From Candidatus Magasanikbacteria bacterium RIFOXYB2_FULL_38_10 (GTDB taxonomy: Bacteria > Patescibacteriota > Patescibacteriia > Magasanikbacterales > UBA10003), in contig MFQT01000017.1 of the NCBI GenBank assembly GCA_001783145.1, forward strand, positions 30,119-94,118: a DNA stretch of 64,000 bases, written 5' to 3'. The position numbers and the translations under genes are program-made. Under the pieces are notes generated by a model. It was not told the origin of the DNA and searched no databases. It was given only the letters and a program-made list of their open reading frames with translations. Numbering within the stretch: the first letter of the stretch is position 1; each line of letters opens with the position of its first letter. Positions 4,046-7,029 of the stretch are shown one piece after another.

Positions 4046-4234
4046 GTGGCTAAGATTAACAGGTACAAGGTTCGTTGCCACAACCTGGGCAAGGATCAAA
4101 CCTCATATTTTTATTTGTTTACAAGGGTTAACCCCTTTTTACCTCTATTATATTATAGCATTGTTGAGAAAGGACCGCAAGATAAGCGAAATAATTAAAA
4201 AACCCCACACAAATTTTAACAAGAGTCTTTTTTT

Positions 4235-4255
4235 TGGTGACCCGGCTGGGGATCG
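4235..4255 (-). repeat. 21-nt exact copy of the tRNA-Lys 3' end (acceptor/T-arm half including CCA); pseudo-tRNA or att-like scar
   Basis: tggtgacccggctggggatcg at 4235-4255 is identical to 4302-4322, in the same orientation. The sequence diverges immediately afterwards and cannot fold as a tRNA. Confidence 0.8.
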
Positions 4256-4301
4256 TGACCAAGCGTACCAGAGAAGCTGTGCAGCGCTTTTGTTTTTTAA
4301 A

Positions 4302-4377
4302 TGGTGACCCGGCTGGGGATCGAACCCAGGACCATCAGCTTAAAAGGCTGTTGCTCTACCAGCTGAGCTACCGGGCC
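4302..4377 (-). tRNA. tRNA-Lys (anticodon UUU), CCA encoded
   Basis: Minus-strand read GGCCCGGTAGCTCAGCTGGTAGAGCAACAGCCTTTTAAGCTGATGGTCCTGGGTTCGATCCCCAGCCGGGTCACCA folds as a 76-nt cloverleaf. Anticodon loop is CTTTTAA and the T-loop is TTCGATC. Confidence 0.9.
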
Positions 4378-4456
4378 GTCACTAGTGTTTAAAAAAACTG
4401 ACAAAAAATTTTAATTGATTTTTTACCAAAAAGTTTCACCCACTAGCATACACCTC

Positions 4457-4485
4457 TTGACAAAATCTGTCAAATGTGCTATGAT
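4457..4485 (+). promoter_or_regulatory. near-consensus sigma70-type promoter upstream of the GC-rich ORF
   Basis: TTGACA (4457-4462), a 17-nt spacer, then TATGAT (4480-4485) preceded by TGc (extended -10). The -35 box lies in the palindrome TTGACAaaatcTGTCAA (4457-4473). Confidence 0.6.
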
Positions 4486-4665
4486 ATGTAGTTAATTTGA
4501 TCTTTGATAATAGGGTGAAGGCTTTGTCCAACCAGATAAGTTTGGCTAAATTAAGGCAAAAATAAAGAAAATAAGATTAAATTTGTCCTAAATAAGCTTG
4601 ATTTATCCGGTTGGGCGAAGGTTTTCGCCCTCTCGAGGAAGGCTCCCCTTAAGGAGCTGTTTGGT

Positions 4666-4671
4666 AGGAGG
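4666..4671 (+). promoter_or_regulatory. Shine-Dalgarno site of the GC-rich ORF
   Basis: AGGAGG lies 5 nt upstream of the ATG at 4677. Native genes in this window lack such motifs. Confidence 0.7.
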
Positions 4672-4676
4672 TTCCT

Positions 4677-6155
4677 ATGGAACTCGTTCGTCAGTTCTTC
4701 GCGGCCCTGGTGTCCATGACGGACACGGCCATCGCGGCCGTGTTCCAGAGCCTGGAGCAGGAGAACGTGCTGACCAGCGCGCGTCTGCGCGCCGCGGTCA
4801 AGAAGAGCGAGGGTAACGAGTTCCGGCGCCTCAAGGTGGCTCTGGGCTATGCCGTGGACCACCAGCTCACCCTCTCCATCGCGAACATCCCGTTCATGAC
4901 GGACGAGGAGCTGGTGCTGGCGTTCCTGGAGGCCACGCCCGACCAGCGCGCCGAGTTCGTGGTGGCGCTGGACGAGATCACCGACGAGAGCGGTGTGCGC
5001 GGTCAGCAGGTGCTCTCCTCCGTGCAGGAGCGCCTCAACATCGAGAAGGCCGTGGCGCAACGCCAGGCCGAGGAGGAGCGTCTGGAGCGCGAGCTGGCCA
5101 AGAAGGCCGCCAGGCGCCTGGAGCTCCTGGAGCACACGGATCGCCTGATCCTGCACATCCTGCGGACCGGCGACGCCTGCGATATGACCGACGAATTGGC
5201 GGTCCAGTACATAGAGGATCAGCCCCTGGGCTACTTCAAGGTGCTCTCGGACATCGCCGGGCTCATCACCCCCGCCACCGCGGCGGAGGGCGAGGCGGCC
5301 CTGACCGGCCTGGACGCGCTGCGCGGCGGCACCATCGTGGACATGCTCACGGGCGCCACCCTGGCGGTGAAGGACGCGCGGAGCATCCGGGGTTGCTTCA
5401 TCACCGACGAGGAGGGCGCCAAGCGCCTCGTCAAGAAGCTCCCGAAGAAGGAGGGGGGAAGGGAGATCTACAGGCACCTGACGGGCGAGAGCCCCGAGGG
5501 TGTCCTGGAACGCCTGGACAGGCACGACGCGGAGTACGCGGCGCGCCAGAAGCGCGACGAGGCCTTCGTGGCCGAGGTGAAGAAGGCGATCGGCGAGGCC
5601 GACGCCACCTTCGTGGCCCTGGCCAAGGCGGTGGCCGAGCTGGTGGAGATCAACTCCGTCGGGACCAGCGGGCCCGAGGAGTGGAAGATGCGGATCATCC
5701 GCGACATCTCCGGCGAGTTCGGCGAGTTCCTGCGGCGGTCCTACATCGGCCAGTTGCGCCAGGCCTACCCCGACGCCTCGACGATCCCGGCGCTCAACGC
5801 CCGGATCGAGGAGGTCAAGGCGGCCTGGAACCAGGCGCGCGCGACGGGCGCCCCCTCCTACGAGCAGGATGCCATCCTCAAGGAGGTCCACGTCCTGGAG
5901 CGGCACCGGCAGTACCTGTCCGAGGCTCCCCAGCTCAAGCCGCAGCAGGGCAAGCCGACCGTCGGCACCCACGCCCACACCAAGGGCAAGGAGGGTGCCC
6001 CGGTCCTGACCGACCACTCCCGCGACGAGGACAGGGAGCGCAAGGAGCGCGAGCGGCGCGACGCCGACCGGAAGCGCACCCTGGACACCAAGGGCAAGGG
6101 CGGCGGCCAGCCCCAGCTCACGGGCAAGGGCAAGCACCAGAAGGGCAAGAAGTAG
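4677..6155 (+). CDS. orphan 492-aa protein on a high-GC island; helix-rich with a lysine/glycine/arginine-rich charged C-terminal tail; function unknown
   Basis: Long ORF with SD plus ATG. 36 of the first 40 codons end in G/C, a strong third-position bias that marks this frame as coding. No TM segment, signal peptide or catalytic motif recognised. Confidence 0.75.
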   Translation: MELVRQFFAALVSMTDTAIAAVFQSLEQENVLTSARLRAAVKKSEGNEFRRLKVALGYAVDHQLTLSIANIPFMTDEELVLAFLEATPDQRAEFVVALDEITDESGVRGQQVLSSVQERLNIEKAVAQRQAEEERLERELAKKAARRLELLEHTDRLILHILRTGDACDMTDELAVQYIEDQPLGYFKVLSDIAGLITPATAAEGEAALTGLDALRGGTIVDMLTGATLAVKDARSIRGCFITDEEGAKRLVKKLPKKEGGREIYRHLTGESPEGVLERLDRHDAEYAARQKRDEAFVAEVKKAIGEADATFVALAKAVAELVEINSVGTSGPEEWKMRIIRDISGEFGEFLRRSYIGQLRQAYPDASTIPALNARIEEVKAAWNQARATGAPSYEQDAILKEVHVLERHRQYLSEAPQLKPQQGKPTVGTHAHTKGKEGAPVLTDHSRDEDRERKERERRDADRKRTLDTKGKGGGQPQLTGKGKHQKGKK

Positions 6156-6285
6156 CCCAGCTACTTCGGCTCCTCAAGTGCCCCCAGTGTCCCTGGCAAC
6201 ATTAACAACGCGGCGGCCAACTAAATAACCGCCCACAACGTCACATGATCTTTCAACAGGTTACAGAGGGTCGCAACGATCCTTA

Positions 6286-6340
6286 CCGGCAATCAAAGTT
6301 CAGTGCTAACACACTGTTCCCACGATTGCCGGTTTTTTTT
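6286..6340 (+). terminator. rho-independent terminator closing the GC-rich cassette
   Basis: Outer stem CCGGCAATC (6286-6294) pairs with GATTGCCGG (6324-6332). Inner stem CAGTG (6301-6305) pairs with CACTG (6312-6316). Followed by T8 (6333-6340). Confidence 0.65.
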
Positions 6341-6365
6341 ATTTCTGCTAAAATGAAGTAAGGAT

Positions 6366-6440
6366 TTTAATAATAAATTTATCTTTTTTGCAGACGATGG
6401 CTTTAGTCCGCGGCGCAAAAAAGATAAATTTATTATTAAA
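6366..6440. repeat. perfect 26-bp inverted repeat with a 23-nt GC-richer loop
   Basis: 6366-6391 (tttaataataaatttatcttttttgc) is the exact reverse complement of 6415-6440. The loop is agacgatggctttagtccgcggc. Confidence 0.85.
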
Positions 6441-6450
6441 TAAAATCATT

Positions 6451-7029
6451 ATGCCCCTTAATCAAAAATATTTTAAAACCCTTAGTACTGTGTTTGCCGA
6501 TTGGGAAAAGTCCCGCCGCTCTGTTCAAGAAGCCTCGGCCAATGCTTTGCAAAAAGCCAAACAGGCTATTTTTTCTTTTCATCGCAATAATTGGAAAGAG
6601 GCCGAGGTTCTACTTAAAACCGCTTTGGAAAACATTAAAATCGCCGGCAAACTGCAAGAAAAAAGCATTGCCACAGATGATGAAGGAATTTTTAAATCAT
6701 CTTTAGAAGAATATGCCGAAGCTGAATTATTTCGTCAGTTTTTGTATAAAGAAACTATTGGTCCAATAAAAAATTTGGAAATTTCTCCGGAAACATATAT
6801 GGGTGGCCTAGCGGATTTGGTAGGGGAGATTCAGCGTTATGCTATGAAAATGGCCACGGAAAGAAATTTTAGCGAACTAACGCGCGCGGAAAAAGTGACC
6901 GAGGAAATTATGGGCGCAATTTTGTCTTTTAATTTTACCGGTTATCTGCGTACTAAATTTGATCAAGCCAAAGGCGCCCGTCGCAAAATAGAAGAGATCG
7001 CCTACGAAGTAAGTTTGCGTCAAAAATAA
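6451..7029 (+). CDS. translin/TRAX-family protein
   Basis: About 190 aa and all-helical. YMGGLADLVGEIQRYAM matches the translin/TRAX signature (G-x-ADLTGELMR). The ORF opens at 6388, inside the hairpin, and the ATG at 6451 is the likely start. Confidence 0.6.
   Translation: MPLNQKYFKTLSTVFADWEKSRRSVQEASANALQKAKQAIFSFHRNNWKEAEVLLKTALENIKIAGKLQEKSIATDDEGIFKSSLEEYAEAELFRQFLYKETIGPIKNLEISPETYMGGLADLVGEIQRYAMKMATERNFSELTRAEKVTEEIMGAILSFNFTGYLRTKFDQAKGARRKIEEIAYEVSLRQK

Follow-up and report, generated by a model that had tools for sequence, protein, structure and literature searches.

Is the segment in front of a GC-rich open reading frame (ORF) in Candidatus Magasanikbacteria bacterium RIFOXYB2_FULL_38_10 the edge of a foreign island that landed behind a resident promoter, or is it the control region of the gene itself? 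The question arises in a stretch of 64,000 nucleotides (nt) of contig MFQT01000017.1, hereafter the window. A first-pass annotation had listed a promoter, a palindrome over its -35 box, two hairpins and an AGGAGG in front of the ORF, and direct reading of the sequence confirmed every one of them in place. That annotation offered two readings, namely a foreign segment behind a captured promoter, possibly one that once served the translin gene, or a cassette carrying its own promoter and a repressor operator; it added that the leader may be regulatory. Our comparison of related loci points elsewhere. As the best explanation of the whole, which we consider probable though well short of certain, positions 4445-4679 would be the native control region of one conserved transcription unit, with back-to-back promoters and a structured leader. 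The segment thus appears to be a long-conserved control region, not the junction of a recently inserted foreign island. The promoter side of the segment consists of the following features.

4457-4485, plus strand: predicted forward promoter of the GC-rich gene, with TTGACA (4457-4462), 17 nt, TG (4477-4478) and TATGAT (4480-4485)
4457-4473, no strand: palindrome TTGACA-aaatc-TGTCAA, readable as a pair of -35 hexamers set back to back, each of them falling within the spacer of the opposite promoter
4445-4473, minus strand: predicted reverse promoter facing tRNA-Lys, with -35 TTGACA (4473 to 4468), 17 nt and -10 TATGCT (4450 to 4445)
4302-4377, minus strand: tRNA-Lys(UUU), called by ARAGORN and matched by the Rfam tRNA model with 68.6 bits, the divergent partner

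The window locus (W; Candidatus Magasanikbacteria, Candidate Phyla Radiation, about 37% GC) was compared with relatives labelled L001 to L017. The unit in question, composed of the promoter, a leader of about 185 nt, the GC-rich ORF, a 3' untranslated region (UTR) and a terminator, was found in nine distinct lineages, W and eight further ones. The promoter comparison comprises the nine loci with upstream sequence (W, L001, L004, L009, L010, L011, L012, L013 and L014), and the leader comparison comprises eight full-length leaders; L002 is truncated at its 5' side, and L012 does not have the rod described below. L004 and L008 are the same locus, and L009 and L015 were treated together.

The forward promoter scored 11 of 12 consensus matches plus the TG in the promoter scan, with its boxes inside the usual 16-18 bp spacing, and only six sites in the entire window, both strands included, score 11/12 or better. 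Its core, CTTGACAAA followed by AAAT, G and TAT, is invariant or nearly so across the nine loci, and CTTGACAAA, AAAT and TAT are strictly invariant, which bears out the near-consensus extended -10 promoter of the first-pass annotation. The score of 11/12 is also reached in L009, L010 and L014. The extended -10 reads TGTGC in six of the nine loci and TGTGA in L013, and is absent in L009 and L010. This core stayed constant in all nine loci while the protein that it drives diverged to 22-44% identity. On these comparisons the promoter is a real and strongly conserved signal, with a start predicted near 4492 from the position of the -10 box.

The palindrome occurs only once in the window. With up to one mismatch allowed, a match was obtained in 17 of 100 shuffles, so that the motif alone is not beyond chance within one genome; its significance comes from conservation, as it is exact in six of the nine homologous loci with differing spacer letters and a spacer of five or four nt. 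The 5-nt spacer is found in W, L004, L009 and L013, and the 4-nt spacer in L011 and L014. L001 carries one mismatch, and L010 and L012 have a degenerate version. For the first-pass annotation, a chance palindrome absent from homologous loci would have counted as a refutation; in these six it is exact.

In the six loci with the exact palindrome, a -10-like hexamer lies 17-18 nt past the second half-site (TATGCT, TATGCT, TATATT, TAGAAT, TATTAT and TATTAT), for promoter totals of 10-11/12. The chance rate of a -10-like hexamer at such a distance in the window was 0.106 per site for at least 4/6 matches and 0.025 for at least 5/6. All six reverse promoters point at tRNA-Lys, and in L011 and L014 the tRNA sequence begins 9 nt past the -10. 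The reverse promoter of the window scored 10/12; its predicted start, near 4438, precedes the tRNA 5' end by about 60 nt, and it is the sole minus-strand candidate of at least 9/12 whose -10 lies between the palindrome and the tRNA. The reverse promoters of L004, L009, L011, L013 and L014 scored 10-11/12 in the same arrangement, and these loci would form overlapping divergent pairs as well; in W, L009 and L014 the reverse promoter is also a direct call of the promoter scan. L001, L004, L009/L015, L013 and L014 likewise have this tRNA, or its 5' part, upstream of the promoter, and L011 has a truncated copy only.

The three loci without an exact palindrome have their reverse promoter located elsewhere. 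In L001 it reads TTGACT, 16 nt, TATAAT and lies 18 nt from the tRNA; in L012 it reads TTGACA, 17 nt, TATAGT, lies 34 nt away and faces a protein gene; in L010 it reads TTGTCA, 17 nt, TATAAT and overlaps the forward -35. Because the half-sites are exact -35 hexamers, each with its own -10 at 17-18 nt, and because the palindrome decays where the divergent promoter is separate, we read it as the paired -35 boxes of two overlapping divergent promoters. This would be a better account than a repressor operator, which is the less likely of the two; of the first-pass annotation's operator palindrome, the conserved palindrome stood and the operator became the weaker reading. About 30 bp separate the two -10 hexamers of the pair, and about 54 bp the predicted starts. 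A half-site spacing of 4 or 5 nt is tolerated by promoter spacers.

A near-identical promoter string, CTTGACAAAAnnTGTnAAATGTGCTATAAT, was also seen in three unrelated metagenome loci, L005 (603-629), L006 (401-427 and near 620) and L007 (5106-5132), one of which lies upstream of a tRNA. It suggests a common strong-promoter consensus, spacer positions included, in some bacteria resembling the Candidate Phyla Radiation. These loci were matched by the metagenome pattern scan with TGTnAAATGTGCTAT spacers, and they bear TGTTAA or TGTAAA, not TGTCAA. The motif is missing from the other strong promoters of the window. Therefore, the palindrome is specific to this locus family, and a generic spacer motif was rejected.

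Downstream of the forward promoter, the predicted transcript contains the following features.

4492-4676, plus strand: predicted 5' UTR of about 185 nt, its start deduced from the -10 box
4501-4639, plus strand: predicted long imperfect rod of about 139 nt, with 5' strand 4501-4560 and 3' strand 4582-4639
4513-4533, plus strand: segments X' (GGGTGAA, 4513-4519) and X (CTTTGTCCAACC, 4522-4533), complementary to hairpin 1
4610-4630, plus strand: segments Y (GTTGGGCGAAGG, conserved as YTGGGCGRR) and Z (TTCGCCC), which together make hairpin 1
4613-4630, plus strand: hairpin 1, GGGCGAA-ggtt-TTCGCCC, read in the sequence
4641-4658, plus strand: hairpin 2, GGCTCC-ccttaa-GGAGCT (core GCTCC/GGAGC, 4642-4657), a GC hairpin that lies 8-15 nt ahead of the Shine-Dalgarno sequence
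4666-4679, plus strand: Shine-Dalgarno AGGAGG (4666-4671) and ATG (4677-4679), read in the sequence

The RNA of 4492-4679 folded with a minimum free energy of -69.1 kcal/mol (z = -6.2), and none of 200 shuffles folded as well. The fold, which the first-pass annotation had proposed as a check, is dominated by the long rod. Each of the eight full-length leaders folds independently into an equivalent rod, whose 3' strand always carries YTGGGCGRR, and the apex varies among relatives from 10 to 113 nt. A plain MAFFT alignment of entire leaders misaligned this variable apex, and likewise hairpin 1, so we used an alignment, A3, of the trimmed rod base in which the apex was replaced by GAAA and the arms were taken from the predicted fold of each sequence. 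In A3, 93.8% of the cells were paired versus 34-52% when the partner strand was slid, a percentage inflated by the choice of arms from each sequence's own fold; 14 of 23 pairs changed on both sides, and none of 500 shuffles equalled it. RNAalifold on the unaided MAFFT alignment returned the same rod base, with 14 pairs, six of them compensatory. The helix is rich in G-U pairs, and the sense strand folds better than the antisense strand by 13-41 kcal/mol in all eight loci. The covariance model also scored sense above antisense, and it found no other copy in 155 kb of sequence scanned. Judged by this covariation, the rod is an RNA-level element specific to this leader, and the leader is very likely a functional RNA, which upholds the earlier suggestion of a regulatory leader. 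When the window region and seven related loci were scanned with Rfam 15 at permissive E-values, only the tRNA passed and the leaders matched no family; the sub-threshold matches (plant and animal miRNA models, Phe_leader and similar) were far under the gathering thresholds. The leader appears to be a rod-shaped RNA without Rfam counterpart, previously undescribed; as an RNA motif it would be new, although RNAs of this general kind are known.

The two hairpins of the first-pass annotation had different outcomes. In the predicted rod of the window, GGGCGAA (4613-4619) pairs with TTTGTCC (about 4524-4530) and TTCGCCC (4624-4630) pairs with GGGTGAA (4513-4519), and enforcing the local hairpin 1 costs about 15 kcal/mol. 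By the folding model, hairpin 1 is therefore not a stand-alone structure in the window, and both of its arms belong to the 3' strand of the rod. Hairpin 2, on the other hand, holds: all eight full leaders have a predicted GC-rich hairpin in the corresponding position, the truncated L002 showing only a 3-4-bp GC core, and its sequence varies with the pairing kept (for example, T-A in W versus C-G in L001 and L004). The AAGGAG that it was said to sequester is unique to the window and absent from the relatives, so that part of the claim was not sustained. The relatives have GGAGG or GGAG 6-9 nt before the ATG.

Segment Y can pair either upstream with X, in the rod, or downstream with Z, in the local hairpin, and the two pairings are mutually exclusive. 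X, Y and Z co-vary among the loci, as in GGGCGGGA/TCCCGCTC of L001 and GGGTAGA/TCTGCC of L013. In L001, L004, L009, L011 and L013, a mere 1-5 kcal/mol separates the form with three hairpins from the more stable rod. A terminator-like Y.Z hairpin with a T-run was called in L009 (272-287) and L010 (200-224), and L011 and L014 also have a T-run, behind a weaker hairpin. No T-run follows hairpin 1 (after 4630) in W, L001, L004 and L013, and no terminator-like site was called in window positions 4492-4676.

A further motif, TTGT(T/A)C(T/C)TTAAA(A), lies near the 5' end of the leader (window about 4499-4510; L010 132-145; L012 868-881) and is conserved in 9/9 loci. It is degenerate in the window (GATCTTTGATAA) and present even in L012, whose leader has only 34 nt. 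The first 35 or so transcribed nt are near-identical in L010 and L012 despite very divergent proteins.

The gene under this control is listed here with its downstream elements.

4677-6155, plus strand: GC-rich ORF of 492 amino acids, with a GC content at third codon positions (GC3) of 0.95 versus about 0.35 in neighbouring genes
6156-6354, plus strand: conserved 3' UTR with terminator stem CCGGCAATC...GATTGCCGG (6286-6332), followed by a T-run
6326-6354, plus strand: promoter-like site for translin, TTGCCG, 17 nt, TAAAAT, overlapping the terminator; the translin ATG is at 6451

The crossing from AT-rich to GC-rich sequence near 4606 that the first-pass annotation had described was reproduced, as GC climbs from about 0.37 to more than 0.64 between 4600 and 4700. 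The GC content of the ORF by codon position is 0.69, 0.42 and 0.95, versus a GC3 of about 0.31-0.43 in the neighbours. Its protein exactly matches a database entry annotated as a hypothetical protein, the sole exact match. The ORF is the true coding frame; the high GC content accounts for the long ORF on the opposite strand (4551-6137). The encoded protein has a C-terminal tail that is basic. The family forms ten clusters at 50% identity among 1.84 billion representatives. No relatives were found by Pfam, PHROGs, PDB sequence profile or Foldseek-PDB on the AlphaFold model (predicted local distance difference test, 78.5), and no homologues were found in phage and plasmid collections. Protein-pattern scans of genome contigs and JGI metagenomes confirmed no relative, but they are insensitive, as the genome scan missed the true L004 orthologue, which was found via translin in the same genome collection.

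The deviant composition is shared by the related loci, where the ORF is GC-rich relative to its flanks with a GC3 of 0.78-0.99, except in L012, whose ORF (GC 0.53, GC3 0.63) matches its flank of 0.57 GC. GC3 reaches 0.95-0.99 in W (4677-6155), L001 (4656-6113), L002 (51-1532) and L013 (342-1775), versus about 0.35 in other genes. The ORF proteins of L001, L004 and L009 are 41, 29 and 24% identical to that of W, versus 50-87% for the neighbour proteins. At four-fold degenerate sites of conserved residues, the third-base identity between orthologue pairs was 0.31-0.64 versus a random expectation of 0.38-0.51. Since synonymous sites are saturated while GC3 stays near 1, the gene must be old in these genomes and its composition actively maintained. 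The composition is, as far as these substitution patterns tell, maintained and not inherited from a recent donor.

The unit also keeps its place. In W, L001 and L004 its neighbours are tRNA-Lys on one side and translin on the other; L009 has a peptidase gene ahead of translin. The gene order of L001 is MraY, FtsW, MurG, tRNA-Lys (minus strand), ORF, translin, GT2 and Mur ligase, that of L004 is identical, and that of L009/L015 is similar with the peptidase gene added. In L013 and L014 the 5' part of the tRNA adjoins the promoter at the contig edge, and in L011 the adjacent tRNA copy is truncated and ARAGORN finds no intact tRNA. Every relative with neighbour proteins about 65% identical or more (L001, L004 and L009/L015) has the unit in the same place, and it is absent only from the distant L016 and L017, so its presence among close relatives is not patchy. 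In L017, a more distant member of the Magasanikbacteria, MurG is followed by other DNA, a plus-strand tRNA-Lys that has its own promoter, and translin; the ORF is missing. In L016, also more distant, tRNA-Lys adjoins a large serine recombinase, again without the ORF. The comparison with relatives that lack the unit, which the first-pass annotation had called for, was accordingly possible in part: these two lack the ORF but are distant, and the close relatives all carry it. The genes flanking the unit are MurG, translin, a GT2 glycosyltransferase and a Mur ligase, with no regulator gene among the flanking genes examined.

These data bear on promoter capture, in which a GC-rich foreign cassette inserted at about 4606 behind a resident promoter that once served translin or another gene. 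The jump is indeed sharp (GC 0.37 to 0.69, GC3 0.35 to 0.95), tRNA-Lys is an integration hot spot with the serine recombinase beside it in L016 and truncated or duplicated tRNA pieces in W and L011, and L017 carries MurG, tRNA-Lys and translin without the ORF. Nevertheless, promoter, leader, ORF and 3' UTR stay together in nine lineages with the composition switch at the same leader position. The transition is not an insertion junction because the rod strands on either side of it, AT-rich 5' and GC-rich 3', covary, so the helix spans the supposed boundary. The saturated four-fold sites indicate an old gene, 4606-6340 has neither flanking repeats nor an integrase and holds a single ORF without recombinase domain, and phage and plasmid collections yielded no homologue, the genome and JGI metagenome scans being weak negatives. 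We therefore regard capture as extremely unlikely, and the foreign segment behind a resident promoter was not borne out. A recent insertion is contradicted; an ancient acquisition at the origin of the family may have occurred and is compatible with the data. Hardly more credible is the view that the long inverted repeat works at the DNA level, be it as a cruciform, a miniature transposable element or a recombination site, and not as RNA. It does lie at a compositional boundary beside a tRNA hot spot, but many of its pairs are G-T or T-G, which become A-C mismatches on the opposite strand, the antisense folds are worse in 8/8 loci, the covariance model found no second copy in 155 kb, and orientation and position relative to the promoter and ORF are always the same. 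Very unlikely, too, is a ligand riboswitch, a leader-peptide attenuator or a T-box-type attenuator sensing a metabolite, translation or tRNA-Lys charging. The exclusive X.Y and Y.Z pairings, the terminator-like Y.Z of some loci and the conserved 5' motif TTGT(T/A)C(T/C)TTAAA, which contains a Lys codon with tRNA-Lys adjoining, would suit it; yet Rfam gave no match, T-box included, at permissive E-values, the apex of 10-113 nt is without conserved junctions or bulges, and there is no UGGN bulge to pair with the tRNA 3' end. The mini-ORF has no start codon in L009 and L013, ranges from 4 to 22 codons and has no Shine-Dalgarno sequence. A leader peptide was rejected, as the mini-ORF TTG-TTC-TTT-AAA is not conserved as an ORF, and so was a T-box, as no T-box features accompany the adjoining tRNA-Lys.

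Unlikely, in our estimate, is the reading of the palindrome as the operator of a dimeric repressor or activator of the GC-rich gene, possibly of tRNA-Lys too, with its -35 likeness secondary. The inverted repeat is kept in 6/9 loci while spacer letters change, it overlaps both promoters so that a bound protein would shut both, and the first 30 or so transcribed nt (TTTGTT...TTGTTCTTTAAAA) are unusually conserved and could form a second protein site. However, the half-sites are exactly the sigma-70 -35 consensus, each with a correctly spaced -10, and the spacing of 5 nt in four loci and 4 nt in two would be unusual for a rigid dimer operator. Moreover, the palindrome decays precisely where the divergent gene owns its promoter (L001, L010 and L012), no second copy exists in 64 kb, and no regulator domain was found in the flanking genes examined. 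Several points weigh against our own reading of back-to-back promoters with a structured leader. Both promoters rest on consensus matches and the start sites are predictions; the reverse -10 of the window (TATGCT) has only 4/6 matches and lies 67 nt from the tRNA, and the tRNA beside the L011 promoter is a truncated copy. A repressor could bind the same palindrome, as an operator laid over both -35 boxes is compatible with the sequence, although this is less likely. As for the leader, the choice of arms inflated the A3 percentage, only about six independent lineages carry the rod, and in the window the rod is favoured over the alternative by 15 kcal/mol and is not followed by a T-run, so that this genome gives no evident sign of a switch. 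The variability of the apex speaks against a ligand pocket at that end of the rod.

As for the other end of the unit, TGCTAAAAT lies directly past the terminator in W, L001, L002, L004 and L013. It is degenerate, with the AAAA core only, in L009, L010, L011 and L014; the L010 remnant is TTGCCAAAAT, and the downstream gene of L010 differs, being an HD-domain protein. Because a conserved promoter-like site of its own, overlapping the terminator before it, serves as the candidate promoter of translin, this gene would not depend on the promoter at 4457, and the suggestion that the latter once served translin is not supported. The terminator and the -10 of the next gene look like part of one conserved module. 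Between the promoter-like site and the start codon (6451) there is a perfect 26-nt inverted repeat (6366-6391 and 6415-6440) with a 23-nt loop; it is absent in L001 and L004, which marks it as a lineage-specific palindromic insertion in the translin 5' UTR. Its weak matches to Rfam miRNA models reflect hairpin shape only.

Around the tRNA, positions 4225-4255 are a partial direct duplicate of the tRNA-Lys 3' end (4292-4322), with 87% identity over 31 nt, of which 21 nt are exact. The duplicate lies about 45 nt beyond the tRNA 3' end, on the side opposite to the GC-rich segment, has a degenerate counterpart in L004 (about 2946-2990), and could be a decayed tRNA copy or else an old att-type scar. 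L016 encodes a serine recombinase of 579 amino acids (361-2111) adjoining tRNA-Lys(UUU), L011 has a truncated tRNA-Lys copy and a second 5' fragment (1-33 and 262-324), and in L017 tRNA-Lys(UUU) is inverted (4366-4439) with different neighbouring DNA. Therefore, tRNA-Lys(UUU) is a hot spot for integration and rearrangement in Magasanikbacteria. Like tRNA-linked genomic islands, the unit adjoins tRNA-Lys, has a deviant composition and is accompanied by a partial tRNA duplicate. Unlike them, there is no integrase, there are no flanking att repeats around the GC-rich segment, the segment is on the 5' side of the tRNA, and it has been inherited in place across nine lineages.

Overlapping divergent, or back-to-back, promoter pairs are known from Tn10 tetA/tetR and Escherichia coli bioA/bioBFCD, among others. 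The pair described here is like them in having two sigma-70-type promoters on opposite strands, with overlapping polymerase regions in one short intergenic region and the genes coupled. It differs in that the overlap consists of two consensus -35 hexamers that form an exact palindrome with 4-5 bp between them, and in that one partner is a tRNA gene, without a known repressor, the promoters being predicted. In bidirectional promoters with a symmetric, shared -10, the starts are 18 bp apart, and also 10 or 23 bp (Warman, Grainger; bioRxiv 10.1101/2020.01.31.928960; PMC12825309), and competition between the two orientations was demonstrated (PMC12825309). As in that class, the symmetry of the sequence would let polymerase bind either way; here, however, the -35 region is symmetric, the -10s lie at 4480-4485 (plus) and 4450-4445 (minus) and the starts are about 54 bp apart, so the pair does not belong to it. 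We regard the promoter pair as a variant of an arrangement already known.

The leader resembles terminator/antiterminator leaders (riboswitch platforms, trp- or pyr-type attenuators, T-box) in its three covarying segments, of which the middle one pairs up- or downstream, and in L009 and L010 also in the downstream hairpin with T-run. Here, no sensor domain, leader peptide or tRNA-binding features were identified, and there was no Rfam match. Of the two parts of an intrinsic-terminator attenuator, the exclusive upstream pairing is present, and the hairpin with a U-tract is absent from the window and present in L009 and L010. Long double-stranded segments of 5' UTRs are cut by RNase III in the E. 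coli rnc and pnp leaders and the lambda N leader. Our leader is like these in having an imperfect RNA duplex of more than 20 bp early in the mRNA, upstream of the ribosome-binding site. By analogy, a small 5' hairpin left after cleavage could stabilise the message, cleavage here being hypothetical.

Taken together, the left -35 (4457-4462) and TG-TATGAT (4477-4485) would start the mRNA of the GC-rich gene near 4492, and the right -35 (4473 to 4468, minus strand) and TATGCT (4450 to 4445) would start the tRNA-Lys precursor near 4438. As each -35 lies within the spacer of the other promoter, the polymerase sites would overlap and probably compete. The mRNA would open with a 5' UTR of about 185 nt, mostly folded as a long imperfect rod, in which Y (TTGGGCGAA) would pair with X (TTTGTCC), or else with Z (TTCGCCC) to give hairpin 1. 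In some relatives, Y.Z with its T-run may act as an intrinsic terminator and X.Y as antiterminator. In the clade of the window, where the T-run is absent and the rod absorbs Z as well, the rod is probably a constitutive structure; it may, speculatively, be a processing or stability element of the RNase III type or a protein-binding platform. The small GC hairpin (4641-4658) and AGGAGG would then lead into translation.

A bolder idea, which we consider quite unlikely, is that the transcript was built to expose almost no A or U, through selection on the RNA itself. In its favour, the ORF has G or C at 95-99% of third positions despite saturated four-fold sites, and the only AU-rich part of the mRNA, its first 110 or so nt, lies almost wholly inside the double-stranded rod. 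If this were true, the selection could be for withstanding an A/U-specific ribonuclease, for an extremely stable RNA, or for a message that is used outside the cell that makes it, and the leader would belong to a new class of RNA elements, protective or regulatory, that is specific to these candidate-phylum bacteria.

The locus corrects an attractive misreading, in which a sharp GC jump beside a tRNA resembles a fresh island; here it would belong to an old, vertically inherited unit. Its compact promoter would couple a tRNA gene to a protein gene via a palindrome of two -35 boxes, a geometry that differs from the recently described bidirectional promoters with a shared -10. To our knowledge, gene regulation in Candidate Phyla Radiation bacteria is almost unexplored, and the covarying, sense-specific leader is a candidate RNA from this group. 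The controlled gene is itself puzzling, as it evolves fast and has a GC3 near 1 in an AT-rich genome, and the control region described here makes expression experiments possible.

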